A DNA stretch of 64,000 nt from Candidatus Methanophagaceae archaeon (GTDB lineage Archaea > Halobacteriota > Syntropharchaeia > Alkanophagales > Methanospirareceae), in the NCBI GenBank assembly GCA_003194435.1, contig PQXC01000006.1, forward strand, positions 3,981 to 67,980, in the 5' to 3' direction. The number at the start of each line of letters is the position of its first letter. Position 1 is the stretch's first letter. This document shows, one piece after another, positions 42,840-60,033 of this stretch. The notes beneath the pieces were generated by a model. That model had not been told where the DNA came from, did no database searches, and saw nothing but the letters and a program-made list of their open reading frames with translations. A program made the translations under genes and the position numbers.

Positions 42840-43697
42840 CTATTTTTCTTTTTTAAATATCAAATACGACGCTATCACGAACAATCCCGCTGTTACAAAC
42901 ACAGCCTCAAATCCCGGTATTTCCTGTCCCTTATTCTCTTTTTCCCCTGACATAGGCAATGAAACGATTGAAGCCGGCGACGACGTGGCTATGGTTGGAG
43001 TTGGATATGGTGATGGATATGGTGATGGTGAGGGAACAGAGTTTATAGTGGATGTCTGCATTGGTGTAGAATCCGGTGTCTCCGTAGGTGAGGATATAGA
43101 TGCAGGCGTTGATGTTGGTGTTGACGTTACAGATGCGTCTCCACTGTTGCTATCCCCACTTTCCGAAGTTGGTGTTGGCGTAGACGTGGGCGTATGAGTA
43201 GGTGTTGGTGTAGTTCCTATATTGCATGTTCCATCACCGATTAAAACGCCTGCGATCTCAAAACCGTAAGGGTCGCTTAATATTACTTCACTCAAATTTA
43301 GACTGCTCGTTCCGGGTTTCGTTGCATTAAAGGTAATGGTTGCAAGCACACCGGGGTTAGTCACTCCACCGCTACCTATTCTGTATTCGCTGAAATTGAC
43401 CTTGCCGTTGGAATTATCAATCTCATTTACCATCACATTGCCTCCGAGAAAGGGTCCTTGGTTTTGACTCAGCGCCTGTAATAAACTATTATCAAAGAAT
43501 AAGGTGTATTGAGCACCGAATATCTCCTCGCCTTCAGGATATATGGTTATGTTCACTGTGAACTTCTCCCCGGGTGAAACTTGTAGATATGGCGGTTCAA
43601 CACTTATTTTTGGTCCTGGCATTCCAAGGCTCGTTTGTATGAGTGAAGAGACAAATAGGGGAGCAATGGCAATCGCTGCGACCATAGCTTTGTTCAT
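42840..43697 (-). CDS. Cohesin-domain protein with Thr/Pro-rich linker and PGF-CTERM archaeosortase sorting signal
   Basis: Cohesin FTVNITIYPEGEEIFGAQYTLFFDNSLL. TPTPTHTPTSTPTPT linker. IPGFEAVFVTAGLFVIASYLIFKKEK. Confidence 0.8.
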   Translation of the reverse strand: MNKAMVAAIAIAPLFVSSLIQTSLGMPGPKISVEPPYLQVSPGEKFTVNITIYPEGEEIFGAQYTLFFDNSLLQALSQNQGPFLGGNVMVNEIDNSNGKVNFSEYRIGSGGVTNPGVLATITFNATKPGTSSLNLSEVILSDPYGFEIAGVLIGDGTCNIGTTPTPTHTPTSTPTPTSESGDSNSGDASVTSTPTSTPASISSPTETPDSTPMQTSTINSVPSPSPYPSPYPTPTIATSSPASIVSLPMSGEKENKGQEIPGFEAVFVTAGLFVIASYLIFKKEK

Positions 43698-43703: not shown

Positions 43704-44720
43704 TCATCTCCTCCTTTTTCTTTTTATGATAAAATATGACATTGCAAGCAAGCCAATTGTTGCTGTGATAGCTCCAAATCCTGATGTAGGTGAAGCTGCT
43801 GGTGAAGCAGCAGGGGTGAGAGAAGGTGGAGGTGACAATGCAGGAGGTGAAGGGGTTACTGTTATTGGAGGTGTGGGTGTGAGCAATGAGGTTACGGGGA
43901 AGTAAATCTTCCATTCTTCTATACCACCAAGCATATTATAAACATGTTCAAAACCATGCTGGACAAGTATTTCGCTTGCTGTTCTGCTTCTGCTACCGGT
44001 TTTACAATAAACAATGATTTTTTTAGATTTGTCCAATTCGCCAATTCTGTTTCCCAATTCAGGTAAAGGTATAAGTTTAGCTTCAGGTATATGCTCACTA
44101 TCGTATTCCTTTTTCGTTCTGACATCCAGCAAAATGATTTCTTCCGGCTCTTCTTCCAACATCTCGTGTGCTTTTTCAACTGTGATATCAATAACAGCGG
44201 GCTCACCTGTAACTCCTCCTACGGTACATGTTCCACCGCCAATTTCACTCTCAAAAACTTTCCCATTTATGTCGCTTAATATCACATCGCCCAATGTTAA
44301 ATCGCTCGTTCCGGAGGTTCCAATTACCTCAAAGCTAATAGATGCTAATACACCAGAGTCTGATATGCCTCTCTCAGCAGTTCGTGTCTCGCCATATTCG
44401 ATCTTGCCAATTGTATTGTTTATTTTGTTTATCACTTCGATTGCATTCGTGCCATCCTGACTTAGAAAAGTCCCCTTGGTTTGCGATGTTGCATTGAGCA
44501 AATTGGGGTCGAAATATAAATCATATTGAGCGGCATATATCTCCTCTCCTTTTGGGTCCACCACGATTTCGATTGTGAATGTCTCCCCCTGCGATACCTC
44601 AACACTTGCTGGCGACACGCTTATACTTGGTCCGGGTGCGGCTTGCACCAGCGAGCTAAACGCCAGATTTAGTAGCACAAAAAATACCAAACCCATACAT
44701 ATTGCCCTTCTTATTTCCAT
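43704..44720 (-). CDS. Cohesin domain - rhodanese (sulfurtransferase) domain - Pro/Thr linker - PGF-CTERM-like anchor fusion protein
   Basis: Cohesin FTIEIVVDPKGEEIYAAQYDLYFDPNLL. Rhodanese with active-site loop VYCKTGSRS. C-terminal SGFGAITATIGLLAMSYFIIKRKRRR. Confidence 0.8.
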   Translation of the reverse strand: MEIRRAICMGLVFFVLLNLAFSSLVQAAPGPSISVSPASVEVSQGETFTIEIVVDPKGEEIYAAQYDLYFDPNLLNATSQTKGTFLSQDGTNAIEVINKINNTIGKIEYGETRTAERGISDSGVLASISFEVIGTSGTSDLTLGDVILSDINGKVFESEIGGGTCTVGGVTGEPAVIDITVEKAHEMLEEEPEEIILLDVRTKKEYDSEHIPEAKLIPLPELGNRIGELDKSKKIIVYCKTGSRSRTASEILVQHGFEHVYNMLGGIEEWKIYFPVTSLLTPTPPITVTPSPPALSPPPSLTPAASPAASPTSGFGAITATIGLLAMSYFIIKRKRRR

Positions 44721-45235: not shown

Positions 45236-45652
45236 TTGATTGCGAAGGTCGCGGAACCAATCGTGAATATGGTGCTTCCGGAATCAAGTTTAGCAAATTT
45301 AAAAGAGATGAGATACACTGGTGTAGAAGTGATAATAACACCGGAATTGATGACCGCTACTTTCAATTTCGTTCCTTTTATCGGGCTTATTTTCGCAACG
45401 AGAGCAATTAGTTTTAAGAATAAGATGAAGGCTATGGGAATAGGTTTGCCTATAATAGTAATTGCACATATCTTTTTCCTTGTGTATAAATCTCTTACGG
45501 ATCCGAACCTTGGAGTCCCTTATGCTTTTAAAGCCATGCTCACAGTGCAATTGATAGGACAATATTTCCTCCCTTTTGGCATCTGGCTTGCATTTGCATG
45601 TAGTGGGGATAGAGGAGCATGTGAGGAAGAAGCATGGGAAGAAAGGCGTTGA
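45236..45652 (+). CDS. Hydrophobic hypothetical protein (possibly the C-terminal part of the degraded archaeosortase-like gene)
   Basis: ORF with three predicted TM segments. Confidence 0.3.
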   Translation: MIAKVAEPIVNMVLPESSLANLKEMRYTGVEVIITPELMTATFNFVPFIGLIFATRAISFKNKMKAMGIGLPIIVIAHIFFLVYKSLTDPNLGVPYAFKAMLTVQLIGQYFLPFGIWLAFACSGDRGACEEEAWEERR

Positions 45653-45881
45653 AGAAGGAAGAAGTTAAGGCAGTGTTAGAGTTGGAGGCGGAGAAAGCCG
45701 ATTTCGTCTCTATGATGTTAGAGAAATTGCATTTAGGTAAGGTTATGGAGCGGATAAGGAATGTGCTTAAGAGAATAAAAGAGAAGGAAAAGTAAAGGAG
45801 ATGCGACTCCTGAGTCTCTAAATTCTTCAGTTCAAGTTCAAAGAGAAGTTTTTATATGCGCATTGCCAATATTATTCACGA

Positions 45882-46244
45882 GTGGTAGAAATGGAACATT
45901 CGTGGATAGAAGTTGAAATATCAGACCTTGAGAGGAAGAAATCCGCAAAGCTAAACGCATTGGTTGATACTGGAGCGAGCTTGGCAGTTTTGCCAGAAAA
46001 AATAGCTGAGGAGCTTGGGATAGAACCTATAAGCGAGGAGAAAGTTTCGACAGGAGCAGGAGAGATAAAGGTAAAGAGGGGTAGAGCCTGGATAAAGCTG
46101 AAGGGGAAGGAAGATGCCTTTCCCATCTGGATTTCGGGTTTTATAGACAAGGTTTTGCTTGGAGTGGTTGTTTTAGAATCCTTTGGCTTTGATGTAGATC
46201 CTGCAACCGGAACATTGAAGGAAAGACCACTGCTTTTATATTGA
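45882..46244 (+). CDS. Retropepsin-like (clan AA) aspartic protease
   Basis: ALVDTGASLAVLP matches the D-T/S-G-A catalytic motif and hydrophobic flanks of the retropepsin fold. 120 aa. Confidence 0.6.
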   Translation: MVEMEHSWIEVEISDLERKKSAKLNALVDTGASLAVLPEKIAEELGIEPISEEKVSTGAGEIKVKRGRAWIKLKGKEDAFPIWISGFIDKVLLGVVVLESFGFDVDPATGTLKERPLLLY

Positions 46245-46489
46245 CGGATAGATTGACTTGCATCTCGCTCTTGGATTAGTTAGTTTGGCGATTGCTAAAA
46301 GGCTTCTTGAGAAGTGATTCGAGTTTACAGAATTTTCTAAAGAAGAGTTCATACGGGTTTTTTTCCTTCATTAAGAAAGAACTCGAGCTAATTCCTCTTG
46401 AAACCTAAGAGAAAAAAAGGAATTTTTTAAAGTTTACTATTTTCCACTTTTCCCTATTGCCTATTGCCTATTGCCCATTTCGCTTATTT

Positions 46490-47494
46490 TTACCATGCAA
46501 TATTCCCCCAATTTGCTCCTATTATCACTGCATCAAGTATGTTCACGATACAATCATTGTTAAGGTCTCCCCTGTCAGCCCTGTCTTGTCCTTCCCAGCA
46601 GAAATTACCGCACGTGCATTTTTCGCCCCATTCACGCCCTACTATTACTGCATCAAGGATATTCACCCTGCCGTCCCCGGTTGCGTCTCCCGCAATATAG
46701 ACGTTAACTTGTATAATAGCCGTGTTTGCGAGACCACCATCATCCTTTACTGTTAAACTGACATTAAATGGTTCGTAGCCTGTTCCATTCCATTTACAGC
46801 TCGAATAAGCATGCTCTATCGCCGGACCTTCGCCAGAATGTGTGTCTCCGAAGTCCCATGTATAGCTTGTGATGGCATCGCCATCCGGGTCATAAGAAGC
46901 GGAAGCGTTAAAGATGGTTTGGCATGGATAATAGGAGCCAACGTTATTGTAGCGGTGCGCAGAGAATGCGATTGCAACAGGGGGGAAGTTTATAAATGCA
47001 GTGCCATTATCTACTGCCGCCGGTATGGTAGTTTCATCAGGACCAGCTTCCTTCAGCACATTGATGCTTAGGTTCAATGCACTTGTCTCTCCATGATTGC
47101 CAACCGCTTTTAATGTGATGTCTGCGAATTTGACATCGCCGTATAATCCATCGCCAAAATCTGCCCCCACTGCTTTGACACTACCTGTCGAATTGTCAAT
47201 AACTGCATCAAATAAATCGAAATCGCTGTTCGCTGCCGATACCACATGAACCACAGATGGGTCGAAAGCGAGGCTTATATCGGCAGCACCCAAATATGAT
47301 ACATTGTTGATCATGATACTCGTGACTGCAGTTTCGTCAGGCTTCATAAAGGCATCGCTTATTGATACAGTAGTTTCAGAAGCAGAAGCTGAAGCTGAAG
47401 CAGACAGAGTGAGGAATGAGACAAAGAGCAGAAATAGTGCAGTATACAACACTGCTACTCCCGGTCTTTTCTTCTTCCACATATCGTTCTTCAT
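46490..47494 (-). CDS. Secreted protein: cohesin-like N-domain + PKD domain + C-terminal double dockerin
   Basis: PKD YDPDGDAITSYTWDFGD. Dockerin repeats GDATGDGRVNILDAVIVGREWG and GDLNNDCIVNILDAVIIGANWG. Start set near MKNDMWKKKRPG (signal peptide). Confidence 0.75.
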   Translation of the reverse strand: MKNDMWKKKRPGVAVLYTALFLLFVSFLTLSASASASASETTVSISDAFMKPDETAVTSIMINNVSYLGAADISLAFDPSVVHVVSAANSDFDLFDAVIDNSTGSVKAVGADFGDGLYGDVKFADITLKAVGNHGETSALNLSINVLKEAGPDETTIPAAVDNGTAFINFPPVAIAFSAHRYNNVGSYYPCQTIFNASASYDPDGDAITSYTWDFGDTHSGEGPAIEHAYSSCKWNGTGYEPFNVSLTVKDDGGLANTAIIQVNVYIAGDATGDGRVNILDAVIVGREWGEKCTCGNFCWEGQDRADRGDLNNDCIVNILDAVIIGANWGNIAW

Positions 47495-47516
47495 TCTTAT
47501 TTTCACCTCCTTCCAT

Positions 47517-49532
47517 TTAGTGAAGCGTTTCAAAGCCCGATTCACCAAGTACGTGTTTTGAAAGATACATCGCATCATACAGTGTTACCACTCCGTTACC
47601 GCTGACTTCTCCTACGCTTTCGGTCATCGTTTCAAATCCGGGTTTTCCAAGCACGTGCTTGGCAAGATACATGGTATCATAAATATCCACCTCACCATTT
47701 TCACTCACATCCCCGTTTAGTATGACAATTAGGGGTATGTTCACCGATGCGTTTACGTTTCCAAATATGTCGGTTGCGTATACCGTGAGGTTATGTGGCA
47801 GGTAGCTCCCATTATATATCGCCGTTCCAATCGAAGCATTAACAGTTACAGTCCATATATCAGTGCCGGGGATGCGAGTCATTGGCTGGTCAGGCGAGCC
47901 ACCCAGTGATGAGAGGTTGATCGAGACACTGGCAACACCACAATCGTCTGTTACTGTAACGTTTAATTGTGATGTTTCGCCCCACCTCAGCTCAGAATCG
48001 GTATCCTCGGGAATAGATGGTGGATTTGCTGTTGGATTTGTTACCAGTGGTGGTGTAACCTCAGCGATGACAAAAGTCCCGTTGTGTGTGGTTGCAGGTA
48101 TAGGAATTTCATCGGGACCTGCATCCTTCAACTCATTGATGGTAATGTTCAGAGTAGACGATTCGCCTGCACTTCCTACCGCCTTTAGCGTGACGTCTGC
48201 GAGTTTCACATCGCCATTGAGACCCGGAGAAGAAGTCTGAAATGCACCTATTCGTGTTATGCCGGAAGAATTATCAATTGCAGACTCCAGGAAATCGAAA
48301 TCGCTATTGTTAACCGCGATGACATGAACCACTGATCGATTGTAGGATAAGAAGATATCCGCAGTGCCGACATTGGTTATATCGCTGATGATAATCGAAG
48401 TGGTAACATTTTCTCCTGATACTGCACTTGCATCACCGATACTGATAACAATATCAGCAAAAGTCTTGAATGCGCGTTCAGAGCTCTGAGCGGAGTTGTT
48501 GCTCGCGTCGGTGCTGTTCACCACGTAATAATAAGTGGTATTTGAGATGAGATCGGCAATTGAGATGCAGTGATAAGTCACGAGAGATGCATTATAAACG
48601 ATTTTCGTGTAATTCCCGGGTTCTGTGCCGTATTTGAGCATGCTGTCACTCGGCTCATCAGTTTCCCAGGTTATGATTGCAGAATCTTTCGCTGTTGGTA
48701 TTGCACTGATATTGGTGATGACAGGCGGAGAAACATCTGGCGGATATAAAGTGATGTTCTGCATGAAACCACCGGCATTCATCTCCTGTTGCGTCACTAT
48801 ATGGTCGAAGACAGAGAAGTTGCCCAGATTATCACTGGCGTTAAAATGAAGTATGTTTCCTTCGCTTATATGAGCGAAGTTTGTTAATACCTGATAATAA
48901 TTAGAGTTTTCGTTTGTCTCTGCTATGAATATTTCTGAGGTGTTCACATTTTCTATCGTAACGTTTGGATTGTATACCGGAGAGCCGTCGTCATAATTAA
49001 CGAAACCAGAGATGTTAAAGTGTGTCGCATTAATTTCTACTGTTCCATTATTGACCGAAATGCCAGAAATTTCATAACCGAGAGGGTCGCTTAATACAAT
49101 ATTGCTCAGATTTAAACTGCACGTTCCGGGTTCCATCGCCTTAAAGGTAATCGTTGCAAGTACACCGGGATTGAACACACCGTACTCAACACCCGTTCTC
49201 ATTTCACCATACTCCGCTTTGCCGATGGTGTTGTTGATTACATTCGTTATGTCCATTGTTGATGCGCCGTCTTGACTGAGAAATGGACCCTTGACCTGTT
49301 CAATCCCTTTTAGAAGCGTATTATTGAAATACAAATCATATTGTGCACCCATTACCTCAACACCTGCTGGATTTACTGTTATATTCACTGTAAAGAGATC
49401 ACCCTGCAGGACGTTTTGATAAGATGGTTCAACGCTTACTACTGGTGCTGCATGAGCCGATGTAACACAGCAAATTAGAATGAATAGAGATACTGTTGTT
49501 ATTCTAACAATGTCTTTGATAGTATTTCTCAT
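47517..49532 (-). CDS. Secreted cohesin - NITxNxT/NYYQ module - fibronectin-III - cohesin-like - dockerin protein
   Basis: Start set at SD-ATG (MRNTIKDIV..., signal peptide). Cohesin LFTVNITVNPAGVEVMGAQYDLYFNNTLL. FN3 ITWETDEPSDSMLKYG. C-terminal dockerin repeats NGDVSENGEVDIYDTMYLAKHVLG. Confidence 0.8.
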   Translation of the reverse strand: MRNTIKDIVRITTVSLFILICCVTSAHAAPVVSVEPSYQNVLQGDLFTVNITVNPAGVEVMGAQYDLYFNNTLLKGIEQVKGPFLSQDGASTMDITNVINNTIGKAEYGEMRTGVEYGVFNPGVLATITFKAMEPGTCSLNLSNIVLSDPLGYEISGISVNNGTVEINATHFNISGFVNYDDGSPVYNPNVTIENVNTSEIFIAETNENSNYYQVLTNFAHISEGNILHFNASDNLGNFSVFDHIVTQQEMNAGGFMQNITLYPPDVSPPVITNISAIPTAKDSAIITWETDEPSDSMLKYGTEPGNYTKIVYNASLVTYHCISIADLISNTTYYYVVNSTDASNNSAQSSERAFKTFADIVISIGDASAVSGENVTTSIIISDITNVGTADIFLSYNRSVVHVIAVNNSDFDFLESAIDNSSGITRIGAFQTSSPGLNGDVKLADVTLKAVGSAGESSTLNITINELKDAGPDEIPIPATTHNGTFVIAEVTPPLVTNPTANPPSIPEDTDSELRWGETSQLNVTVTDDCGVASVSINLSSLGGSPDQPMTRIPGTDIWTVTVNASIGTAIYNGSYLPHNLTVYATDIFGNVNASVNIPLIVILNGDVSENGEVDIYDTMYLAKHVLGKPGFETMTESVGEVSGNGVVTLYDAMYLSKHVLGESGFETLH

Positions 49533-49589
49533 TTCCCATTTCTCACCTCCTTTCAAACTTTTTCGTTTGTTTTTTACCCCCGTCTTTTA

Positions 49590-49659: not shown

Positions 49660-52600
49660 TTACCATGCTACATGCCCCCAGTTTGCTCCTATTATAACGG
49701 CGTCGAGGATGTTTATCACGCAATCGTTGTTCAGGTCTGCTTTGTCTTTCTGCAGGTCATCCCACAGATAACCCTCACAGTTGTCACAAGGGTTCGTTGT
49801 AGAACAATGTTCACCCCAGTGCTTTCCTACGTACACTGCATCCAGGATATTCACCCTGCCGTCTCCGTTCGCATCCCCTGCTATGTAAACGGTAACATCA
49901 AAGGAAGTTGAGTTGCTCATTTCCGGGCATCCGTCATCTGTCACCGTTAATACCGCACTGAATAGCACGTAATCTCCATTTGGGTTACCGAATGGTTCCC
50001 ACTGCCATGACTTATATTTGTGCTCTTTGCAAGCGCATCCGTTTAGGTTACCACCTTCACTGGTTCCATACTGCCCGTCACCGAACGCGAACCGGATATA
50101 CGAGATGTTGCCACCTTTATTACCGAAATCCGGGTCCCATGAGCACGAGCATATAGTCGTGTTGCACGGATATTTCTTTGCCACGTTGTTGTACCGGTGC
50201 TTTGATACTGCAATTGCAATTGGTGGTGTGTTGTGGGAAATTGTGACGGTGCCATTAAAGATGTTTATTTGGTCGTACGATTCGTCTGTGTCAGGATTGA
50301 CAATGATCACATCACTGAGGTTGAGGTTAGCGAGTGATTCGCGTTCCCCAATTGCGGTGAACTGAATAGTTGCCACGGTGCCCTTTTCATTTACACCGCT
50401 CTCCCCTATTCTCGTCTCTGCGTATGAAATCTCGCCCGTGGCATGGTCTATGCTATTGGTGACCACGATTGTCTCACCGGAAAGACCGAGGAAAGGTCCT
50501 TTTGTCTGCGTCTCTGCTCTTACTACACTGGTGTTATAATGGAGATAATACTGGACACCATAGACCGAGTTCCCGTGAGGGTCAACCGTTATGTTCACGT
50601 CAAACTGGTCTTGTGGTTGAACAGTAACATTATTTGGTTCAACACTTATTTCAACGAGTACTCCTCTCACGGTTATAGTGATATTCTCGAAGTCAGTTAG
50701 TTCGCCATCGGTGACCTCGAAATGCACATCGTGATAGATACCTGCCTGTCCGAAAGTGGGCGTCCATGCGAATCTTCTCGTGCTCGGGTCAAAAGTTGCC
50801 CCAGGGGGCAGGTTGGATGCGGAGTATATCAGTGCATCGCCATCAGGGTCGGTAGCATGGATAGTAAATGCGAGCAAAGAATTCTCGTTAGCGAGCTTGT
50901 CTCCTATTTCTTCGAGCACCGGAGCACGGTTGACGTTATTCACTGTAATCCGCACGGTCTCATTATCAGTTCCACCTTTGCCATCGTTAACGCCAAAATC
51001 CACGTGATAAACACCGGCATCGTCATATGAAGGCATCCAGTGCCCGATACCAGTTGAAGGATTGAAATCAGCGAACAAATCCGTGCGGTTGCAATAATAG
51101 GTGAGCGTGTCACCATCCAGGTCGGTTGCATTAAGAGCAATCATGAGAGTTTCATTCTCGTTTATTCCTGTATCGCCAATGGGAGCGAGTTCAGGCGGTC
51201 TGTTCACATCGTTCACCGTTATCTTAATAGTTTTGTTATCAATCCCGCCTTTAGCGTCGCTAACGCCGAACTCAATGTAGTAAATGCCTGCGTCGTCATA
51301 ATCGGTAATCCAGTGCCCGATACCTGTTGAAGGCTTGAAATCGGCGAATAAATCCGTGCGATTGCATGAATATGTAAGCGTATCACGGTCGAGGTCGGTT
51401 GCATTCACATCTATCGTTAGCGTTTCACATTCATTTATTTCTCGGTCTCCTACGGGTTCGAGTTCCGGTGGTCTATTTTCATTTTTCACGGTTATCTTCA
51501 CCGTCTCGTTATCAATCCCGCCTTTGCCGTCTGAAACACCGAAATCAACGCAGTAAGTGCCTGCATCGTCGTAGTCGGTAGTCCAGTGTCCGATGCCCGT
51601 TTCCACGTTGAAATCAGTGAACAGGTCCGTGCGGTTGCATGAATAAGTGAGTGAATCACCGTCAGGGTCGGTTGCATTAACGTCAATCGTTAGCATTTCC
51701 GTTTCATTCAGTTCCACATCTGCAACAGGTTCAAGTTCAGGTGCCCGGTTCACGTTATTTACCACAATCGTGATGTCTTCGTAATCGGTTAATTCACCGT
51801 CGCTGACCTCGAAGTGGACATCGTGATATGTCTCCGACTGTTCAAAAGAAGGAGTCCACGAGAATGTCCTCGTGTCCGGGTTGAAGGTTGCACCATCAGG
51901 TAGATTCGATGCTGAATATGTCAGTGTGTCGCCATCAGGGTCGGTGGCGTTTATCGTGAATTCGAGCAGTTCGCTCTCGTTCACCGCTTTGTCGCCTATC
52001 TGCTCAAGAACAGGCGGTCTGTTCGTGCCACCTACCACGATTGTAATGTTCTCCCAGTCGCACAATTCGCCGTCGCTGACCTCGAAGTGCACGTCATGAT
52101 ATATCCCCTCCTGCTCAAAAGAAGGAGTCCACGAGAATGTTCTCGTGTTGGGGTCGAAACTCGCTCCCTCTGGGAGATTCGATGCTGAATATGTCAGTGT
52201 GTCGCCATCAGGGTCAGTGGCGTTTATCATGAATTCGAGCAGTTCGCTTTCATTTACCATCTTATCGCCTATTGGTTCAAGAACAGGTGGTCGGTTCTTG
52301 TTATGAACGATTATTTTTACTGTCTCGTTATCAATTCCGCCTTTACCATCAGAAACACCGAAATCAACGTAATAGGTACCTGCATCATCATAATCAGCAG
52401 TCCAGTGTCCAATGCCGATAGCAGTATCGAAATCAATGAACAGGTCTGTACGGTTGCATGAATAGGTGAGCGTATCATGGTCGGGGTCGGTAGCATCAAC
52501 ATCAATCATAAGCGTTTCGCTTTCGTTTAGTTCTCTGTCGCCAACGGGTTTAAGCACTGGCGGTCTGTTCACATCGTTTACCGTTATCTTAATGGTCTCG

Positions 52601-54591
52601 TTATCAATCCCACCTTTACCATCAGAGACGCCAAAGTCAACATAGTATGTGCCTGCGTCGTTATAATCAGGGGTCCAGTGCCCGATACCAGTTGAAGGGT
52701 TAAAATCAGTGAATAAATCTGTTCGATTGCAGGAATAAACAAGCACATCATTGTCGGGGTCGGTTGCATTCACATCTACCGTGAGCGTTTCATTCTCATC
52801 AATTGTTCTATCACCTACTGATTCAAGCACTGGCGGTCTGTTCACATCTTTCACCATTATCTTAATGGTCTCGTTATCAGTCCCACCTTTACCATCAGAG
52901 ACGCCAAAGTCAACATAGTATGTGCCTGCATCGTTATAATCAGGGGTCCAGTGCCCGATGCCCGTTAAGGAGTCAAAATCAGTGAATAAATCGGTTCGAT
53001 TGCAGGAATAAACAAGCACATCGTTGTCGGGGTCGGTTGCATTCACATCCACCGTGAGTGTTTCATTCTCATCAATTGTTCTATCACCTATTGATTCAAG
53101 CACCGGCGGTCTGTTCACATCATTCACCGTTATCTTCACGGTCTCATTGTCGCTGAATTCACCATCAGAAACGCCGAAATCCACATGATAAACACCAGCA
53201 TCGTCATAGGAGGGTGTCCAGCTCCAGAGAGTGGCAGTGCCGTTGATGGGTGTAAAAGCGCCAAATGAGGCGTTACTGCTGAATGTTAGCACGTCTCCAT
53301 CGGGGTCGGATGCGGTAATCGTTATATTAAGGGCAAAGCCCTCGTCAACGGTTCTGGGACCGATGGGATTGAGCACTGGCGGCATATTAACATCAAAAGC
53401 ATATAGCTTACCGCCACAGGTTCCGATATAGAGAGTGCCATCGGATGCTATTGCGGGCGAAGAATAACAGATTATCCCGGTGTTATATCTCCACAGAAGC
53501 GAGCCATCAGGGTTTATTGCATAAACATACCCATCTTGTGAGCCTACATAGATGATACCGGAGGCATCAATTGCAGGTGATGAGCTTATGCCGCCGTCAG
53601 TGGTATAAGTCCATTTAAGCGAGCCATCGGGATTTATTGCATATAATTTCCTGTCGCACGAGCCGACGTAAATAGTGCCGTCAGAACCAATAGCAGGTGA
53701 CGATACAATCCAGCAGCCTGTTGGATATGTCCACTTAAGTGTGCCATCGGGATTTATTGCATATAATTTCCTGTCATACGAGCCGACGTAAATAGTGCCG
53801 TCAGAGCCGATGGCAGGCGAGGACTTTGTCATCCCGACGGTATATTTCCATTTGAGCGAGCCGTCAGGATTTATTGCATATAGTTTTCTATCAAACGAAC
53901 CTATATAGATGGTGCCGTCAGAGCCAACAGCTGGTGAGGATTGGATTGAACATCCTGTCTGATAACTCCATTTAAGACTGCCATCAGGGTTTATTGCGTA
54001 CAGTTTTCCATTGTTATTGCCTATATAAATAGTGCCATCAGGGGCTATAGCAGGCGATGTGAGGACGAAGCCCCTGGATTTTTTCCACTTAGAGTCATAG
54101 AACTCCCATTTCTCCGTGCCGTTCGGATACAGAGCATATAATCTGCGATTCCAGCATCCTACGTATATCGTGCCATCCGAAGCTACCGCTGGTGTGGAAT
54201 CAATGTAATCAACCAGGCCATGATAAAAATAAAGAGGGGGCGACCAGTGCCATTTCTCCGTGCCATCCGGGTTAATAGCATACAATCTCGAGCGAGTATA
54301 CCAGTGCCAGCCGCTTGTGCCTATGTATATTGTCTCGTCTGGAGCTATTGTTGCAGAACTAAATATCCCTCTACCTCCTCCGGTATAAAATGTCCATTTC
54401 ACCGTTGCCGTGTTTGGTCCGTAATAGGGACTTAACCCTGTGTGGCTCAGGTCATGATGGAACATGGGCCATGGCGAAGAGGCGAGTTGAGCAGTAGCTG
54501 CTGGAGTTACTGACCACAAGATTACACAGATTGCCAGGAGATTACCAAAAGAACTTTTTCTCGCGAAATCTCGTGGTTTTTTATCTCTCAT
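49660..54591 (-). CDS. Giant secreted protein (1643 aa): 8-bladed PQQ-like beta-propeller + about 11 tandem cadherin/Ig-like repeats + cohesin domain + PKD-like + C-terminal double dockerin
   Basis: Propeller repeats DGTIYIGS..KLYAINPDGSLKW. 92-aa repeats NRPPVLE.IGD....E.L...VNATDPDGD.L.YS...DLF.DF. Cohesin FDVNITVDPHGNSVYGVQYYLHYNTSVV. Dockerin GDANGDGRVNILDAVYVGKHWG and ADLNNDCVINILDAVIIGANWGHVAW. Confidence 0.85.
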   Translation of the reverse strand: MRDKKPRDFARKSSFGNLLAICVILWSVTPAATAQLASSPWPMFHHDLSHTGLSPYYGPNTATVKWTFYTGGGRGIFSSATIAPDETIYIGTSGWHWYTRSRLYAINPDGTEKWHWSPPLYFYHGLVDYIDSTPAVASDGTIYVGCWNRRLYALYPNGTEKWEFYDSKWKKSRGFVLTSPAIAPDGTIYIGNNNGKLYAINPDGSLKWSYQTGCSIQSSPAVGSDGTIYIGSFDRKLYAINPDGSLKWKYTVGMTKSSPAIGSDGTIYVGSYDRKLYAINPDGTLKWTYPTGCWIVSSPAIGSDGTIYVGSCDRKLYAINPDGSLKWTYTTDGGISSSPAIDASGIIYVGSQDGYVYAINPDGSLLWRYNTGIICYSSPAIASDGTLYIGTCGGKLYAFDVNMPPVLNPIGPRTVDEGFALNITITASDPDGDVLTFSSNASFGAFTPINGTATLWSWTPSYDDAGVYHVDFGVSDGEFSDNETVKITVNDVNRPPVLESIGDRTIDENETLTVDVNATDPDNDVLVYSCNRTDLFTDFDSLTGIGHWTPDYNDAGTYYVDFGVSDGKGGTDNETIKIMVKDVNRPPVLESVGDRTIDENETLTVDVNATDPDNDVLVYSCNRTDLFTDFNPSTGIGHWTPDYNDAGTYYVDFGVSDGKGGIDNETIKITVNDVNRPPVLKPVGDRELNESETLMIDVDATDPDHDTLTYSCNRTDLFIDFDTAIGIGHWTADYDDAGTYYVDFGVSDGKGGIDNETVKIIVHNKNRPPVLEPIGDKMVNESELLEFMINATDPDGDTLTYSASNLPEGASFDPNTRTFSWTPSFEQEGIYHDVHFEVSDGELCDWENITIVVGGTNRPPVLEQIGDKAVNESELLEFTINATDPDGDTLTYSASNLPDGATFNPDTRTFSWTPSFEQSETYHDVHFEVSDGELTDYEDITIVVNNVNRAPELEPVADVELNETEMLTIDVNATDPDGDSLTYSCNRTDLFTDFNVETGIGHWTTDYDDAGTYCVDFGVSDGKGGIDNETVKITVKNENRPPELEPVGDREINECETLTIDVNATDLDRDTLTYSCNRTDLFADFKPSTGIGHWITDYDDAGIYYIEFGVSDAKGGIDNKTIKITVNDVNRPPELAPIGDTGINENETLMIALNATDLDGDTLTYYCNRTDLFADFNPSTGIGHWMPSYDDAGVYHVDFGVNDGKGGTDNETVRITVNNVNRAPVLEEIGDKLANENSLLAFTIHATDPDGDALIYSASNLPPGATFDPSTRRFAWTPTFGQAGIYHDVHFEVTDGELTDFENITITVRGVLVEISVEPNNVTVQPQDQFDVNITVDPHGNSVYGVQYYLHYNTSVVRAETQTKGPFLGLSGETIVVTNSIDHATGEISYAETRIGESGVNEKGTVATIQFTAIGERESLANLNLSDVIIVNPDTDESYDQINIFNGTVTISHNTPPIAIAVSKHRYNNVAKKYPCNTTICSCSWDPDFGNKGGNISYIRFAFGDGQYGTSEGGNLNGCACKEHKYKSWQWEPFGNPNGDYVLFSAVLTVTDDGCPEMSNSTSFDVTVYIAGDANGDGRVNILDAVYVGKHWGEHCSTTNPCDNCEGYLWDDLQKDKADLNNDCVINILDAVIIGANWGHVAW
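50330..53400 (-). repeat. Intragenic tandem repeat array, period about 276 bp (92 codons), about 11 copies of two alternating subtypes
   Basis: Consecutive protein repeats, some identical over more than 45 residues (NRPPVLES.GDRTIDENETLTVDVNATDPDNDVLVYSCNRTDLFTDF occurs twice). Confidence 0.7.
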
Positions 54592-55052
54592 TCTTCACCC
54601 TCCCATTCATCAACCACTGCGGTTATGGTTTCCACCTCCTCACTCAATCCGGTTGTTTGCGAAGTAGCATTCACGAGCACGGAATAGGGACCTGTAATAA
54701 AGTCATCAGTGACGTTCAGTATTACCGTTCCGCTCTGTCCAGCATCAAGGGTTATTTCTGATTGACTCAGCGAGGCAACACTGGCATTATCGGGATTAAT
54801 TGCAGAGAGATTGAAAGTGTCAGTTTCATTTCCGATATTCTTAATTGTAATCAGGTAGGTTGCATTGCTTCCTAAAGTTGTGGTCTGCGTGATAGTATTT
54901 ACCGTGAGAAAATCATCGGATGCAAACTCCCCAATAATCGCTGGTATTGCTACTGCTATTGTGCATACCATTGCAATGCACACCAATGCGAGGATGCTTT
55001 TTTTTCTTTTTTTCATTTTTCCTTTCATCCGCAGCAGCAATTTAACCCCCAA
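54588..55052 (-). CDS. Small secreted CARDB/DUF11-like beta-sandwich protein
   Basis: Signal/TM followed by LGSNATYLITIKNIGNETDTFNLS...GQSGTVILNVTDD. ATGA overlap with the giant gene start. Confidence 0.5.
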   Translation of the reverse strand: MGVKLLLRMKGKMKKRKKSILALVCIAMVCTIAVAIPAIIGEFASDDFLTVNTITQTTTLGSNATYLITIKNIGNETDTFNLSAINPDNASVASLSQSEITLDAGQSGTVILNVTDDFITGPYSVLVNATSQTTGLSEEVETITAVVDEWEGEE

Positions 55053-55813
55053 CCCGGAGCCCCAACTATGTAAGCACGAAGTGTTACGTAATCCATAGAA
55101 TCTATTTTTGTATTGCAGTCAACGTCCGCTGCCCATTCACTGGTTATTGTCCAACCCGGAGCTCCAACTACGTAAGCACGAAGTGTTACGTAATCCATAG
55201 AGTCTACTTTTCCATTTCCATCTACATCACCGCACATACCTATTCTCACGCTTCCATTGCTAACATTGGTCAAGATAGGATAACCATCAGGGTCGCTTAA
55301 GATGACGCCCTCCAGGTCGCTAAGGTGAAGCCCACTGAGTCCACGTTCAGCAATCGCTTGAAATGTAATTGTTGTAAGCACACCTGAAGTGTTCACGCCG
55401 CTCGTTGTTTTCTTCCGTGATTCAGCATACTCGACCTTGCCAAGGGTATTATTTATTTCGTCTACCCATAGATATGTCTCAGCACCATCCTGACTGAGAA
55501 ATGTGCCTTGGGTAAGTCCAGTTGCGTTCAACAGCGTATTATTAAAATACAGCGTGTAGCTGGCACCATATACTTCACTTCCTTCCGGATAGACGATAAT
55601 ATCAACGGTAAAATTCTCACCCGGGGGAACCTCTAAATACGCTGGTTCAACACTTATCTGCGCTGCCAATGCCGACTGCGCAAAGACACACAATGTCAAT
55701 GCTATCGCAGCAATAATTAAGCCTGTTCCTGTTCTTACTCCTGCTCCTTCTACACTACGCGTACAATTTTCCACTCCTTTTTTTCTTCTTTCTTCTTCCT
55801 TTTTTTCTTTCAT
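55025..55813 (-). CDS. Secreted cohesin-domain protein with C-terminal Cys-terminated double dockerin-like module (…GWGLNCCCG)
   Basis: Cohesin identical over 110 aa to 41544..42821. GDVDGNGKVDSMDYVTLRAYVVGAPGW repeated twice. Confidence 0.75.
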   Translation of the reverse strand: MKEKKEEERRKKGVENCTRSVEGAGVRTGTGLIIAAIALTLCVFAQSALAAQISVEPAYLEVPPGENFTVDIIVYPEGSEVYGASYTLYFNNTLLNATGLTQGTFLSQDGAETYLWVDEINNTLGKVEYAESRKKTTSGVNTSGVLTTITFQAIAERGLSGLHLSDLEGVILSDPDGYPILTNVSNGSVRIGMCGDVDGNGKVDSMDYVTLRAYVVGAPGWTITSEWAADVDCNTKIDSMDYVTLRAYIVGAPGWGLNCCCG

Positions 55814-55875
55814 TTTTTCTACTTTTCACCTCCTAACAAGCATTTAAAGAATTTGACTCACAACTTCGGCTGCTC

Positions 55876-56094
55876 ATGCCAAAACTGAATGAGTCCAGTG
55901 GCGAAATAAAAGCCATACACACTCGCATAGAAGGTGTGGAGAAGGAAATCGGGGGTTTGAGGAGAGAAATGATGACAAAGTTTGAAGCGGTGGATTCAAG
56001 GTTCGACACGCCGGAAGCGAAGATACCAGTGATGGAGAAGATGGCAGAGTTTAAAGTCCGTCTTGCTGAGCTTGAGAAGAAAGTAACTGCATAG
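55876..56094 (+). CDS. Small coiled-coil protein (72 aa), uncertain
   Basis: Heptad-rich IEGVEKEIGGLRREMMTKFEAVD...KVRLAELEKKV. Preferred over the antisense low-complexity ORF 55833..56342. Confidence 0.3.
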   Translation: MPKLNESSGEIKAIHTRIEGVEKEIGGLRREMMTKFEAVDSRFDTPEAKIPVMEKMAEFKVRLAELEKKVTA

Positions 56095-56412
56095 TGCTTA
56101 GGATTTGGCAGTTGGGATTTAGAAATTACGCCAATAGGCGTTTGACGGATGCAGGATGCCGGATACATGATACATGTTTGACTTGCATCTTCACAACTTG
56201 TGGAATTTGAAGTCGAAAGCGAAGAGAAACTGTCCCCAGTTAAAGTTCTATCGCCCAGAGAAGTTTTAAAACTACTATAAGAATTATTTCCTTTGGCGCG
56301 TTTTTCCTTCAGATCCCCGCTTTTTTTCCCGTTCTTCTTCATACTTTAGTCCTACTCCTTTGCATTTTACGTTTTATATTTTGCTCTTTGCATTTTTTAT
56401 TGTTTATCGTGT

Positions 56413-56494: not shown

Positions 56495-59400
56495 CTACCA
56501 GGCGACGTGTCCCCAGTTCGCACCGATGATTACCGCATCCAGGATGTTTATCACGCAATCGTTGTTCAGGTCCGCTCCATCCTGCTGCTCACGGTCTCCA
56601 GTCCAGTAATAACAACATCGTCCAGGTTCTGGATATCCTGGGTCATCACACCTCTTGCCCCAGTGTTTTCCTACCCATACTGCATCGAGGATGTTCACCC
56701 TGCCATCTCCATTCGCATCTCCTGCGATGTAAACAGTTACATCCAGGAAGCTCGAGTTGGTCTCCTCCGGGCATCCGTCGTCTGTCAGTGTTAAGGTGGC
56801 ATTGAATGGCACGTAGTGTCCACCTTCATTATATGGAACGCCCCATGGCTCCCACTGCCATGACTCATACTTATGCTCTTTCTGGCAGCCCTCGCATTCT
56901 GCTCCTGTGCAGTTCTCAATAAACTCGCCTTCGCTCGTTCCGTATTGACCGTCACCGAAGTCCCATCTGACATAAGAGATATTGCCGCCTTTGCCCTCAT
57001 CCGGGTCATAAGACTTGCAAGCGCATAGTTTTGTAATGCACGGATATTTCTTTGCCACGTTGTTCACACGATGCTTTGAGGTTGGAATTGGAACTGGTGG
57101 TCTGTTGTCATTTATCTTGACTGTGCCATCTTCGACACAGACATTGCATACCTCTTGCTTATCTTCGTCAACAATGATTATGTCAAGATCAAGCAGGTCT
57201 AACGGACTTACTGCGCCACGTGCACCGATTGCGGTAAACTGAATGGTTGCGACTGTGCCTTCTCCTTTTACACCGCCATCAACCTTTCTCGTCTCAGCAT
57301 AAGAAACTTTGCCGTTCGCCTGGTCTATGTCGTTTATGACCACGATTGTATCGCTGTAATTACCGAGGAAAGGACCTTTGTTCTGCGTCTCCGCTCTTAC
57401 CACGCTCGTGTTATACGTCAAGTAATACTCGACACCATATATTGGCCAGCCGGAAGAAACGTTTATCATTACATCGAACTGGTCCTGAGGCTGGACAATC
57501 GTTGCGTTGGGTTCAACGCTTATCGTCGCAGTGCATTTCGTATCCTTCTCAACAATCAGGATTGCATTGGTCGCCATGAAGCCGTTGCCATAGGGTCTGC
57601 CGTATGCCCAATAGTACGAGTCCCTCTCCTGGAACTCCGCCACCTCTGGATTGCATGGGTCATTCGCCTGTAGTTCACTTGTTACATTCCACGAATCTGT
57701 GCCTATCTCATAATTGGGTGCCGTAGGCCACACTGGTGACTTACTCGCGCCGTTGAAATAAAGGGTTTCTTCTTTGGATTCTGGTGGTTTATACGGTGGT
57801 TCTGGATTTGCGTATAGCGTGGCAGTGAACAGTGTAGCGTTCATTATCTCTTCTGGTGGATTGTCTATACATGGGAATGTTGCAGTCGTGGTTGCATTAT
57901 CAGGGTGGACATAGTACTGCCAGTAGTGACCTCCTGAGTCCTTGTAGTAGAAGGTAGCAAGATAATCAGCTCCTTCATCTATGTAGTATTCGATGTGCGG
58001 CACGCTTGGATCCTCGTACACGATCAGCAGAGCCATTCCAGCAGTTTTTCCTTTTCCCCATGCGTATGGGATAGTCCTATTTGCAGTGTAAACCCCCGCT
58101 CCCGGGTTCACATACTCTGTCACATCGAACGCGAGCATTCCGTTTTGATATTCGTCCATTGTGGTAAATCCTTTCGTATCTGCATAAGAAGCGTCTACCG
58201 AAATTGGATTGCCGTTAAATGTCATCCCAAAGTCAGGTACTGCACCATAGTCCTTCCACTTGTACCAATCGTAGTACACGTACAGCCTTGCCAGCTTTAT
58301 AGTTGCAGTATCCGGAATGTTTGCCGTAGTATTGGTAATCCTGTTGAGGTCTCCTGGAAGAGTAAAGTGCACTGTGTCGTTGCCGCGTTTGTAGTCTCCT
58401 GTTGTGTAGATGAGACTTCTGTTGCATGCACCTTTTATCACTGTATCCATTGGGTGCTGTCCTTGATACCCGTAGCATGTATGCGGCAGCATATCGTCAA
58501 CTATGCAATCTCCTGTTGTGTTCCTAGTCTCATTCCTCATGTTGTTAGTCTCGTCCATCTCGTCAATGTCATCATCACAGTCTGCGGTTGCAGTCAGTGT
58601 GACGTTCTCTAACACCGTAGGATGCCACCAACCCATTCTCACCTCTACTTCTTCGCCTTTTGCTATTGGGAGACTGGTTGTATTCTTTGCGATAAAGCCA
58701 CCGCCACCCGTTATACTTAAGCTCGTATTACCCGTAAAACCATCGTTTTGACCTACGTTCTTTACCCAGACGGTCATCATGTTATGCTTGGATTCAAATA
58801 CATACCTGGGGTCTATTCGAGTCACTATCAAGTCCGGAGCACCCACAATTACAGATGCTTCGTCTTCATCAGAAACCACGACTCCCGTTTCCTCGCATAT
58901 CCCCGTTGCATTCTGAACATTGCAATCCCTGCCAGTATCTACGATTGTGGCATTGAATATGAGGGTTATAGTGTTGCATGGCGGAAGAGGACCTGCGAAG
59001 TTCCATCTGACACTTCTGTTGTCGGGGCTTACATAATTCGGAGCAGGACCTGCTACCATTCCACTGAAGTTCAAGCCTGTCATGTTGTCCCAGATAACGA
59101 GATTAGTAAGGTTGCAGCATTTTACATGGACTGTTGTCTTAAAGGTCACGTTGGTGCCTATTTCAGTTATATCTTTGCTAATCTCTTTTACCCATGCCCC
59201 TGTTTCGTTCTTCACATACTTGGTAACTTCAATGGGGTTGCCGCAGGTGAACGTTCCGTTGTCTACTCCAAATGGTACTGGACCACTGACATTATACAGA
59301 CTCATTGTTCCTACATCGAAGAGCAGGTTGCTTACGCAGCAGCCATCGGTGTCGCAGCAGTGAACTGTGAAGTCGCCGAGATGGTAAACACCCGCTGGTT

Positions 59401-59791
59401 GGTTAGTGGGAACAGGTGGAGAACCTGACCAATGAGCGAATATGACTGTCAACCGCCCCGGAGTCTGCGCAACGGGAGCCCACGATTGGTCCTCAAAGTG
59501 TGTAAGGTCTGGTGTGTAACTGGTTATATTCGCACAGCAATGGGTATATGTAATGTTTACAACACCATTCTGTATGGGAACATCAGATTTAACCCACACC
59601 CCTACAGTTGTCGTGTTGCAGTAGTCTGGCACAGTGCTATTGTCCGGCTCCAGGTAATATATGGCATCTTTTCCTGTAGGCACTGGAGGCTGTGCAATTG
59701 AGGCAGGTGCAATCATTGCAAAGATGGAACCGAGCATTATCGCTGCCATCGCCATTCCCATCGCTATCTTACCGCTTTTCTTATTTTCCAT
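56495..59791 (-). CDS. Large secreted surface protein: N-terminal beta-rich region + CARDB-like + cohesin + PKD-like + C-terminal double dockerin
   Basis: Start set at the ATG preceded by AGGAGGTGA (MENKKSGKIAMGMAMAAIMLG signal). Cohesin FDVMINVSSGWPIYGVEYYLTYNTSVV. Dockerin GDANGDGRVNILDAVWVGKHWG...ADLNNDCVINILDAVIIGANWGHVAW. Confidence 0.8.
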   Translation of the reverse strand: MENKKSGKIAMGMAMAAIMLGSIFAMIAPASIAQPPVPTGKDAIYYLEPDNSTVPDYCNTTTVGVWVKSDVPIQNGVVNITYTHCCANITSYTPDLTHFEDQSWAPVAQTPGRLTVIFAHWSGSPPVPTNQPAGVYHLGDFTVHCCDTDGCCVSNLLFDVGTMSLYNVSGPVPFGVDNGTFTCGNPIEVTKYVKNETGAWVKEISKDITEIGTNVTFKTTVHVKCCNLTNLVIWDNMTGLNFSGMVAGPAPNYVSPDNRSVRWNFAGPLPPCNTITLIFNATIVDTGRDCNVQNATGICEETGVVVSDEDEASVIVGAPDLIVTRIDPRYVFESKHNMMTVWVKNVGQNDGFTGNTSLSITGGGGFIAKNTTSLPIAKGEEVEVRMGWWHPTVLENVTLTATADCDDDIDEMDETNNMRNETRNTTGDCIVDDMLPHTCYGYQGQHPMDTVIKGACNRSLIYTTGDYKRGNDTVHFTLPGDLNRITNTTANIPDTATIKLARLYVYYDWYKWKDYGAVPDFGMTFNGNPISVDASYADTKGFTTMDEYQNGMLAFDVTEYVNPGAGVYTANRTIPYAWGKGKTAGMALLIVYEDPSVPHIEYYIDEGADYLATFYYKDSGGHYWQYYVHPDNATTTATFPCIDNPPEEIMNATLFTATLYANPEPPYKPPESKEETLYFNGASKSPVWPTAPNYEIGTDSWNVTSELQANDPCNPEVAEFQERDSYYWAYGRPYGNGFMATNAILIVEKDTKCTATISVEPNATIVQPQDQFDVMINVSSGWPIYGVEYYLTYNTSVVRAETQNKGPFLGNYSDTIVVINDIDQANGKVSYAETRKVDGGVKGEGTVATIQFTAIGARGAVSPLDLLDLDIIIVDEDKQEVCNVCVEDGTVKINDNRPPVPIPTSKHRVNNVAKKYPCITKLCACKSYDPDEGKGGNISYVRWDFGDGQYGTSEGEFIENCTGAECEGCQKEHKYESWQWEPWGVPYNEGGHYVPFNATLTLTDDGCPEETNSSFLDVTVYIAGDANGDGRVNILDAVWVGKHWGKRCDDPGYPEPGRCCYYWTGDREQQDGADLNNDCVINILDAVIIGANWGHVAW

Positions 59792-60033
59792 TTTTTCTTT
59801 TTCACCTCCTAAGGGGTTATTTATATAGCGCCCCTCCTTGCGCTTTCTTTTTTCTTTCAGCCCCCTCATGGATTTGCACCATGTCAAACGCTTTGCAAGG
59901 GGGCATCCATTTTCTCTCATTTCCTCTCCCGCTTTTCATTTTCTTTTCCCATTTCCTACTTTCTCTGTTCTTCCACTTTCATCTTCTAAAAAGAAATAGG
60001 CAGCTTTGCGCTGCCTGACATTATTTTTCATTA

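Follow-up and report, generated by a model that had tools for sequence, protein, structure and literature searches.

The longest open reading frame (ORF) in a 64-kb (64,000-nucleotide) stretch of contig PQXC01000006.1 from a Candidatus Methanophagaceae archaeon, hereafter the window, encodes a protein of 1643 amino acids (aa). We consider this protein likely to be a secreted surface stalk protein of the anaerobic methanotrophic (ANME) archaea of group ANME-1 (Methanophagales), acting as an adhesin or adaptor in a non-cellulosomal cohesin-dockerin assembly that is built from the products of a conserved gene cluster. The ORF, taken from the ORF list and its translation, runs from an ATG at the upper end of 49660..54591 to a stop codon at 49660-49662 without interruption; it lies on the minus strand, as do all features of the protein and all cluster genes described below. 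Its product, which we call the giant, passes the profile thresholds of the cohesin, dockerin, tandem-95, and PQQ-like propeller families. From the N to the C terminus it comprises a signal peptide, an eight-blade propeller, ten units of 91 aa, a cohesin, a Cys-rich PKD-like domain, and a dockerin, and orthologs of the same architecture occur at 73-92% identity. An earlier interpretation of the DNA, made without database searches (the sequence-only reading), had named this gene the largest of the window and had outlined a propeller, immunoglobulin (Ig)/cadherin-like repeats, a cohesin, and a dockerin; our Pfam and NCBIfam scans bear out that outline.

The N terminus (aa 1-34, MRDKKPRDFARKSSFGNLLAICVILWSVTPAATA, 54490..54591) combines a basic n-region, a hydrophobic segment, and an A-T-A motif before Q35, and we read it as a Sec signal peptide with a predicted cleavage site placed by the -3/-1 rule. 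The segment at aa 14-37, within MRDKK...TPAATA and the Q that follows, is the sole hydrophobic segment of the protein, and no other transmembrane (TM) segment is present. The head at aa ~38-402 (53386..54480) is a PQQ/BamB-like beta-propeller. Its blade motif, SSPA..DGTIYVGS...KLYAINPDGSLKW, is present eight times, which agrees with the eight blades proposed from the letters alone, and both PQQ_2 (PF13360; 107.2 bits against a cut-off of 27.6) and Beta-prop_ACSF4 (PF13570; 169.7 against 133) score above their Pfam thresholds. In a sequence search of the PDB, the nearest natural solved structure is 3hxj from Methanococcus maripaludis (E = 1.9e-92, 314 bits); the designer Cake, Scone, and Bagel proteins outscore it, and BamB lies far lower. 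The propeller likewise stays below the equivalog model of BamB proper (TIGR03300; 127.3 bits against 285.2). The propeller resembles BamB in fold only, and archaea have no outer membrane. A second tandem DNA repeat of the gene, absent from the earlier interpretation, lies within this head: Tandem Repeats Finder (TRF) reports it at 53602-54057 with a period of 120 (one 40-aa blade) or 237 and 75-76% matches.

The stalk consists of ten in-register cadherin-like/tandem-95 units of 91 aa (273 bp) at aa 403-1312 (50656..53385). With unit boundaries anchored on a recurrent R-P/A-P-V/E-L motif, the ten units stay in register and in frame, free of indels, over 2730 bp. The sequence-only reading had counted about eleven repeats of 92 aa (276 bp) in two alternating subtypes; the array instead contains three types arranged in blocks, namely, a divergent first unit (x), the 'SCNRTDLF' units u2, u3, u4, u7, u8, and u9 (A), and the 'SASNLP' units u5, u6, and u10 (B), in the order x-AAA-BB-AAA-B. 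That the array is a tandem repeat at the DNA level is confirmed by TRF, which finds four overlapping period-273 arrays between 51035 and 53228 (78-88% matches) with scores of 726-1100, far above chance. At the protein level, the NCBIfam tandem-95 model NF012211 reaches 203.9 bits (cut-off, 90) in eight stretches of the array, which also matches the Pfam families Big_9 (226 bits), He_PIG (222), and Cadherin_4 (165) as well as PKD_4 and Cadherin_5. Acidic motifs, ATDPDGD and DVNRPP, are readable in the units, and we take the D-x-D-x-D motifs and the DVN-R-P-P inter-unit linker to resemble cadherin calcium sites.

More distant relatives share the same head and tail and carry 0, 3, 6, 8, 13, or 14 units, in the order x-AA-BB-AA-B where there are eight, x-A-BB-A-B where there are six, and A-B^m where there are 13-14. 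Among the homologs considered here (P0007-P0013, P0015, and P0023; L001, L005, and L007), the first two of these orders and that of the giant follow one formula, x-A^n-BB-A^n-B, in which n takes the values 3, 2, and 1 in three lineages, such that the two A-blocks vary in length together and the order is palindromic. A second subfamily of homologs follows A-B^m with m = 5-13, and no complete protein with unequal A-blocks occurs among 120 hits. Homologs with no unit at all are L006 and P0070. In L006, the gene in the giant's position (10405-14109, 1234 aa) has no 91-aa unit, joins a propeller sequence to the same C-terminal domains, and sits between unchanged neighbours. A scan of genome contigs with the giant gave a single locus (L001, 59% identity), and the matches of the repeat search included bacterial proteins with 17-26 tandem-95 units.

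The C-terminal part opens with one cohesin (aa 1313-1452, 50236..50655), as the earlier proposal had it. The Pfam family Cohesin (PF00963) matches aa 1316-1451 at 32.8 bits against a cut-off of 24.1, covering profile positions 2-139 of 139. When the C-terminal 331 residues were modelled with AlphaFold2 (AF2) from 21 homologous sequences, the cohesin (residues 1-140 of the modelled part) was the only confident portion (predicted local distance difference test [pLDDT], 83-96, about 90); in the model it forms the nine-stranded beta-sandwich of the cohesin fold. When this portion was compared with the PDB by Foldseek, the top 50 matches were cohesins or cohesin-like modules (6kgf_C at E = 1.5e-10 and a template modelling score of 0.75; best target scores, 0.75-0.78), with the non-cellulosomal cohesin 2xdh of Archaeoglobus fulgidus at rank 21. 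The Cys-rich domain that follows (aa 1454-1568, 49888..50232) is homologous to aa 197-293 of a 362-aa neighbour, which match Pfam PKD_4, and we infer from this a PKD-like fold.

The last module, at aa 1569-1643 (49663..49887), had been called a double dockerin. A C-terminal dockerin is indeed present, but it is one dockerin, of the class we call D1, with its two F-hand segments split by a long insert. Dockerin_1 (PF00404) matches it in a single stretch, aa 1571-1634, at 31.1 bits against a cut-off of 22.9, and the dockerin chain 2y3n_B matches it in the PDB sequence search at E = 2.6e-4. The two segments, DANGDGRVNILDAV and DLNNDCVINILDAV, each contain a DxNxDxxxNxxD loop; we judged them against what we take to be the F-hand motif, D-x-N/D-x-D...N/D..D, each then followed by a helix. 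Type I dockerins usually measure about 60-70 aa and have a short linker between the segments; this module measures 75 aa, and its Cys-rich linker, with four Cys in ~30 aa, is unusually long.

Cohesin, PKD-like domain, and dockerin together form a 331-aa cassette (Coh-PKD-Doc) that is kept in every homolog matching it in the cassette search, including those with 0, 3, 6, 8, 13, and 14 units, and that is present three times in the window: in the giant, in a 1141-aa protein, and in the 362-aa protein, which aligns with the giant's cassette at 43% identity (BLASTP, E = 2e-55). The cohesins of the locus fall into three groups. Group I contains the giant and the 1141-aa protein, at 61% identity; group II contains the cohesins of 262-, 425-, and 481-aa proteins, at 88-94%, together with those of 285- and 338-aa proteins and the N-terminal one of a 679-aa protein, at 46-58%; and group III contains the 362-aa protein and the second cohesin of the 679-aa protein, which share 52% identity with one another and about 22% with the rest. 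The dockerins form four sequence classes, D1 to D4. Group I cohesins are confined to cassettes, as are D1 dockerins. The last 26 residues of the dockerin are identical (26/26) between the giant (49663-49740) and the 1141-aa protein (56498-56575), and the corresponding DNA is only 83% identical. Because the residues match completely at this level of DNA identity, the coincidence points to the docking segment being under strong purifying selection. We rejected recent gene conversion as its source, and the match suggests that the two proteins have a common docking partner.

What does the giant's neighbourhood contain? Every family-assigned gene of the cluster, on the minus strand over 40035-64000, encodes a cohesin and/or a dockerin according to Pfam. 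Upstream of the giant lie a 262-aa protein with a cohesin and a D2 dockerin (55025..55813; Pfam Cohesin and Dockerin_1), whose position is occupied alike in L001, L002, L003, L004, and L007, and the 1141-aa protein (56495..59920), which joins CARDB and DUF3344 domains to a Coh-PKD-Doc(D1) cassette at aa 799-1141 (173, 125, and 113 bits with the cassette's hidden Markov models [HMMs]). Farther out are a 197-aa D2 dockerin protein (60034-60627; Pfam and sequence tail), a 337-aa secreted protein without a family match in the Pfam scan (60773-61786), and a CARDB plus beta-helix/NosD plus D4 dockerin protein (61994-64000; Pfam), which is listed as an ORF of 668 aa with a GTG start; because it runs up to the edge of the window, its true start may lie outside. 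Downstream lie the 679-aa protein (47517..49556), which comprises a cohesin, an FN3-like domain (Pur_ac_phosph_N), a second, divergent cohesin, and a D3 dockerin (Pfam, cohesin HMM, and synteny), and the 362-aa protein (46490..47578), which is a bare cassette of signal, divergent cohesin, PKD, and D1 dockerin (Pfam and synteny).

Beyond these come the cohesin-only proteins. The 338-aa protein (43704..44720) joins a cohesin, a rhodanese, a Pro/Thr linker, and a C-terminal TM anchor (SGF...KRKRRR); the 285-aa protein (42840..43697) joins a cohesin, a Pro-rich linker, and a PGF-CTERM-like anchor, PGFEAVFVTAGLFVIASYLIFKKEK, with a TM segment at aa 260-283; the 425-aa protein (41544-42821) and the 481-aa protein (40035-41480) have cohesins 88-94% identical to that of the 262-aa protein, the latter with a C-terminal TM anchor (assignments by Pfam Cohesin and Rhodanese and by TM segments). 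In three of the cohesin-only proteins, the C terminus runs from a Pro/Thr linker through a TM helix into a basic tail. The cohesins at 40035-41480, 41544-42821, and 55025-55813, at 88-94% identity, appear as recent paralogs whose proteins differ in the remainder: a TM anchor, an undefined C-terminal region, and a D2 dockerin, respectively. In the 338-aa protein the active-site loop of the rhodanese, YCKTGSRS, is present, and the same cohesin-rhodanese-anchor arrangement is found at L004 12216-13334, L005 8214-9245, L006 17324-18355, and L007 18502-19551; judged from its domains, this protein would amount to a surface-displayed sulfurtransferase-like domain kept beside the giant in four other ANME-1-type loci.

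The order of these genes is conserved. A small protein, the giant, a Coh/FN3/Doc protein of ~680 aa, a Coh/PKD/Doc protein of ~330 aa, a cohesin-rhodanese-anchor protein, and a cohesin-anchor protein follow one another in L002-L007 as far as the contigs reach, at 53-92% identity (two of these loci were retrieved via the small protein, not the giant), and L001 shows the portion consisting of the cohesin-dockerin protein, the small protein, and the giant. In the window, a 1.8-kb plus-strand insert (44721-46489) separates cluster genes where the corresponding gap in L004-L007 is only about 50-160 bp. It contains the C-terminal remnant of a small archaeosortase (44977-45144), which scores 27 bits on TIGR04178 (cut-off, 23) and is closely preceded by a stop codon; a 138-aa membrane ORF that matches no family; and an aspartic protease of clan AA (45882-46244).

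The small protein deserves attention in its own right. Its gene ends within the giant's start codon through an ATGA overlap, as the sequence-only reading had seen, and the giant's start is preceded, at a distance of 6-7 nt, by a GGAGG-like motif. That reading placed the gene at 54588..55052; the mechanical ORF does extend to TTG 55052, but the start most likely lies at ATG 55016 because the ortholog consensus begins MKKxTK, which gives a gene at 54588..55016 and a product of 142 aa, as in that consensus. The product has a basic N terminus, a hydrophobic segment of ~23 residues (anchor or signal), one Ig-like domain, and an acidic tail; AF2 predicts a beta-sandwich with a pLDDT of 70-83 over aa 46-122. 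The members of its family, 88 proteins, are about 140 aa long and have no Pfam domain. Is it CARDB-like, as had been suggested? The description fits as a fold class and fails as family membership: the protein reaches no CARDB (PF07705) threshold and gives no CARDB match; FixG_C at E = 0.0065 and the NCBIfam choice-of-anchor D and PACE S-layer models all stay below cut-off; and a Foldseek search of the PDB returned nothing with E < 1e-3, the best matches being PapD-like Ig domains, which were not significant. In a profile search, the same domain is repeated 2-20 times in many large proteins; these clear the CARDB threshold (33 bits against 22.7), although FixG_C and HYDIN/VesB Ig give them higher scores, and by these profiles the small protein appears to be an Ig-like domain of the FixG_C/HYDIN-VesB/CARDB kind.

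The small gene adjoins a giant homolog in 8/8 loci (the window and L001-L007), with a 4-nt overlap in the window, L002, L003, and L006, a 13-nt overlap in L001, and a 2-9 nt gap in L004, L005, and L007. Because this adjacency is conserved, a functional link between the two genes, which had been proposed as a partnership, is supported, and translational coupling is plausible. We speculate that the small Ig-like protein may be a membrane-side assembly or holding factor. A further ORF upstream, of 169 aa and Ser-rich (55833-56342), matches no family, lacks both a signal peptide and a counterpart in related loci, and is probably not a real gene.

In sum, the observations above are consistent with a model in which the Sec signal peptide would export the giant, and its D1 dockerin would plug into a cohesin of another cluster protein, ultimately one with a C-terminal membrane or PGF-CTERM-like anchor. 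The giant's own cohesin would then be a socket for a further dockerin protein, making the giant both adaptor and cargo. We posit a rod made of the ten cadherin-like units, to which calcium probably lends stiffness; its length, ~45 nm, follows from about 4.5 nm per Ig-like unit in cadherin-type domains. In this model, the rod would keep the propeller away from the cell to bind a ligand, which might be the surface of a partner cell, a matrix polymer, or a mineral. The analysis itself establishes the domain composition, the cohesin fold, the export signal, the synteny, the anchors of the neighbouring cohesin-only proteins, and the purifying selection acting on the dockerin; the cohesin-dockerin pairings, the calcium dependence, the rod length, the adhesive role of the propeller, and the role of the small Ig-like protein are parts that we infer.

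Several observations weigh against this model. AF2 is of low confidence over the PKD-like and dockerin parts of the cassette, with values of <60 over the dockerin, including its Cys-rich linker. PGF-CTERM models stay below their cut-offs on the anchor tails of the window (PF18204, 11.6 bits against 18.8 on the tail of the 285-aa protein), and the Heimdall/Loki-CTERM models fall just under theirs; orthologs of the anchored cohesin proteins, including the L007 ortholog of the 285-aa protein, do give weak PGF-CTERM (PF18204) matches. A functional archaeosortase was sought in the gap at 44.7-46.5 kb, where only the truncated remnant described above was found, the sole archaeosortase-like ORF of the window. 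Finally, the L001/P0015 lineage has lost most of the cohesin and kept the D1 dockerin, and the adaptor role would therefore be dispensable in that lineage.

Could the giant instead be a subunit that polymerises with itself into a matrix or sheath? In such a scheme, head-to-tail chains would arise as each molecule's D1 dockerin engages the cassette cohesin of its neighbour, the giant and the 1141- and 362-aa proteins would co-assemble in these chains with the stalks as side arms, and the mirror-symmetric units would allow antiparallel pairing of stalks. It is favoured by the inheritance of cohesin and D1 as one cassette in all homologs and in the three window paralogs, by the restriction of group I cohesins and D1 dockerins to cassettes, and by the equal length of both A-blocks in all three size classes, to which the 120 hits offer no asymmetric exception. 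The 362-aa protein, however, has the same D1 dockerin with a cassette cohesin only ~21% identical to the giant's; P0015/L001 retains D1 after losing most of the cohesin; and the n = 1 class is one protein, so that the symmetry rests on two evolutionary transitions only and could be a relic of block duplication. We therefore regard self-polymerisation as unlikely, though it is the strongest competitor of the adaptor reading. In its fullest form, which we rate slightly lower again, a self-complementary Coh-PKD-Doc(D1) module together with antiparallel stalks would build an ANME-1 extracellular lattice or sheath of daisy chains whose spacing is set by stalk length. If true, this lattice would carry propellers, CARDB/DUF3344 modules, and the surface rhodanese and would give methane-oxidising consortia a genetically defined scaffold through which cells make contact.

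A displayed enzyme, with the propeller as a catalyst (dependent on pyrroloquinoline quinone [PQQ] or otherwise) docked on the surface in the manner of a cellulosome, is a far weaker candidate. The Pfam propeller models bear the name 'PQQ', and the rhodanese with its intact active-site loop on a cohesin-anchor protein makes surface enzymes part of the system. On the other hand, the nearest solved relatives of the propeller are the methanogen propeller 3hxj, the designer proteins, and BamB, none of which is, to our knowledge, an enzyme. The near identity of the consensus blades also speaks against catalysis, as does the finding that no glycoside hydrolase, carbohydrate-binding module (CBM), or dehydrogenase family matches any cluster protein in Pfam. 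The Pfam and NCBIfam scans list no enzyme family for the giant. According to the Conserved Domain Database text reproduced in the S4 table of PMC9012536, moreover, the propeller family includes members that are neither PQQ-binding nor active. We consider an enzymatic role highly improbable.

The last alternative is that of the sequence-only reading itself, which held the repeat units to be similar enough in DNA to promote copy-number variation, so that their number is likely polymorphic and the array possibly mis-assembled. Such an array would be prone to recombination, with a copy number that varies within populations, or would have been collapsed or expanded when assembled. On unit similarity this is true of u2/u3, which are 94% identical in DNA with a longest exact run of 49 bp, and moderately so of u5/u6 (81%, with a run of 41 bp). 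It does not extend to the remaining pairs, since the other same-type pairs are 69-79% identical and the cross-type pairs 44-52%; just one pair exceeds 90%, and no k-mer of at least 51 bases occurs twice in the gene. The u2/u3 identity is 91-94% in the window and L002 but 76% in a 73% identical relative, which suggests past gene conversion, confined to these two units, in the clade of the giant. A recent duplication of the two AAAB blocks (u2-5 and u7-10) finds no signal either, as A-to-A identities are uniformly 69-79%. Unit number does vary among the distant lineages. Among closer relatives, however, five have ten units in the order of the giant: P0001 (92% identity; found on two JGI contigs), the L007 gene (89.5%), P0002 (82%), P0004 (75%), and P0005 (73%). 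All five come from other metagenome contigs, and in the four compared unit by unit the units mostly correspond position for position. Because five relatives share the ten-unit order, no stretch of at least 51 bases is repeated, and most unit pairs diverge by 20-55%, neither polymorphism nor mis-assembly is supported, and the gene does not behave as a contingency or copy-number-variable gene. We give population-level instability hardly any credence. The array appears old and stable within the ortholog group, with stalk length having changed between lineages, and the differences in unit count would reflect slow evolutionary change rather than instability within populations. By this comparison, the array appears trustworthy as assembled and the locus does not appear hypervariable.

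How does the giant, read as a secreted adaptor and adhesin, compare with systems already described? As a protein type it is ordinary, belonging to an already catalogued class of archaeal non-cellulosomal cohesin-dockerin proteins. Like those of A. fulgidus and of ANME-1 and ANME-2, it is archaeal, secreted, and unrelated to cellulose degradation, and its cohesin matches the fold of 2xdh. In A. fulgidus, too, cohesin and dockerin occur in one polypeptide. Propeller-bearing (BamB/PQQ-like) cohesin/dockerin proteins are listed in the S4 tables of PMC9012536, among them several ANME proteins and MA_RS22370 of Methanosarcina acetivorans. The main text of the two papers that catalogue such proteins in ANME (Timmers 2017, PMC5244752; Chadwick 2022, PMC9012536) does not appear to describe a Coh-PKD-Doc(D1) cassette with a Cys-rich dockerin insert, ten tandem-95 units, or a conserved cluster with anchored cohesins, a surface rhodanese, and a small Ig-like partner.

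A bacterial parallel exists in the adaptor scaffoldins of cellulosomes (for example, ScaA of Ruminococcus flavefaciens or Acetivibrio cellulolyticus), in which, as in the giant, socket and plug reside in one polypeptide and allow hierarchical assembly on anchored cohesins; the window locus resembles these systems also in mixing several dockerin classes and cohesin groups. In contrast to them, window proteins have at most two cohesins and neither glycoside hydrolases nor CBMs, their anchors are C-terminal TM or PGF-CTERM-like tails instead of SLH or sortase signals, and the host is a methane-oxidising archaeon. Pfam finds among the cluster proteins no multi-cohesin scaffoldin, no dockerin-bearing glycoside hydrolase, and no CBM, and the locus, cellulosome-like as it may be in docking logic, is not a cellulosome. 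The glycoside-hydrolase toxin complexes of Clostridium perfringens (2w1n, 2jh2) offer a precedent for large secreted proteins joined by non-cellulosomal cohesin-dockerin contacts, as we propose here, and their cohesins are recovered by Foldseek; they are enzymes, whereas no catalytic domain was detected on the giant. The stalk shares its repeat family with giant bacterial tandem-95/cadherin-like/Big_9 adhesins (NF012211), but it is shorter (10 units), its length is fixed in the ortholog group, and it would be attached by a dockerin rather than by a sorting signal or a secretion-system anchor. For the head, the counterpart is 3hxj, annotated 'pyrrolo-quinoline quinone', an eight-blade propeller of 40-residue blades from a methanogen and presumably the protein from which the designer Cake, Scone, and Bagel were derived; it is an isolated domain, in contrast to a propeller carried on a stalk with a cohesin-dockerin tail.

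Elsewhere in the window, an MCM gene (36155..38269) encodes an archaeal-type winged-helix domain according to Pfam and is 96-97% identical in product to MCMs named 'Methanophagales archaeon' (ANME-1). A CbiD-family protein is encoded at 38787-39860. On the minus strand at 5377-7188, a 603-aa protein joins an AAA_15/AAA_21 ATPase to an OLD-like TOPRIM domain, the architecture of OLD-family nucleases, which is frequent in defence systems.

ANME archaea consume much of the methane made in marine sediments. They live in association with partner bacteria, and no pure culture of them has been obtained (PMC9012536, PMC5244752, PMC10553843). ANME-1 genomes contain about 80 cohesin and 110-150 dockerin domains, for which adhesion or surface display has been hypothesised, and the reason for these many domains is stated as unknown (PMC5244752, PMC9012536, PMC10553843). 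Against this background, the locus described here offers a compact, conserved, and experimentally tractable set of about ten cohesins, which fall into three groups, and seven dockerins of four classes. Cohesins with membrane anchors, a surface rhodanese, and a stalk that carries the propeller at its tip and differs in length between lineages complete the set. The binding matrix of this set is measurable with recombinant modules, and the conserved cluster is thereby a defined test bed for the unexplained expansion of cohesins and dockerins in ANME.

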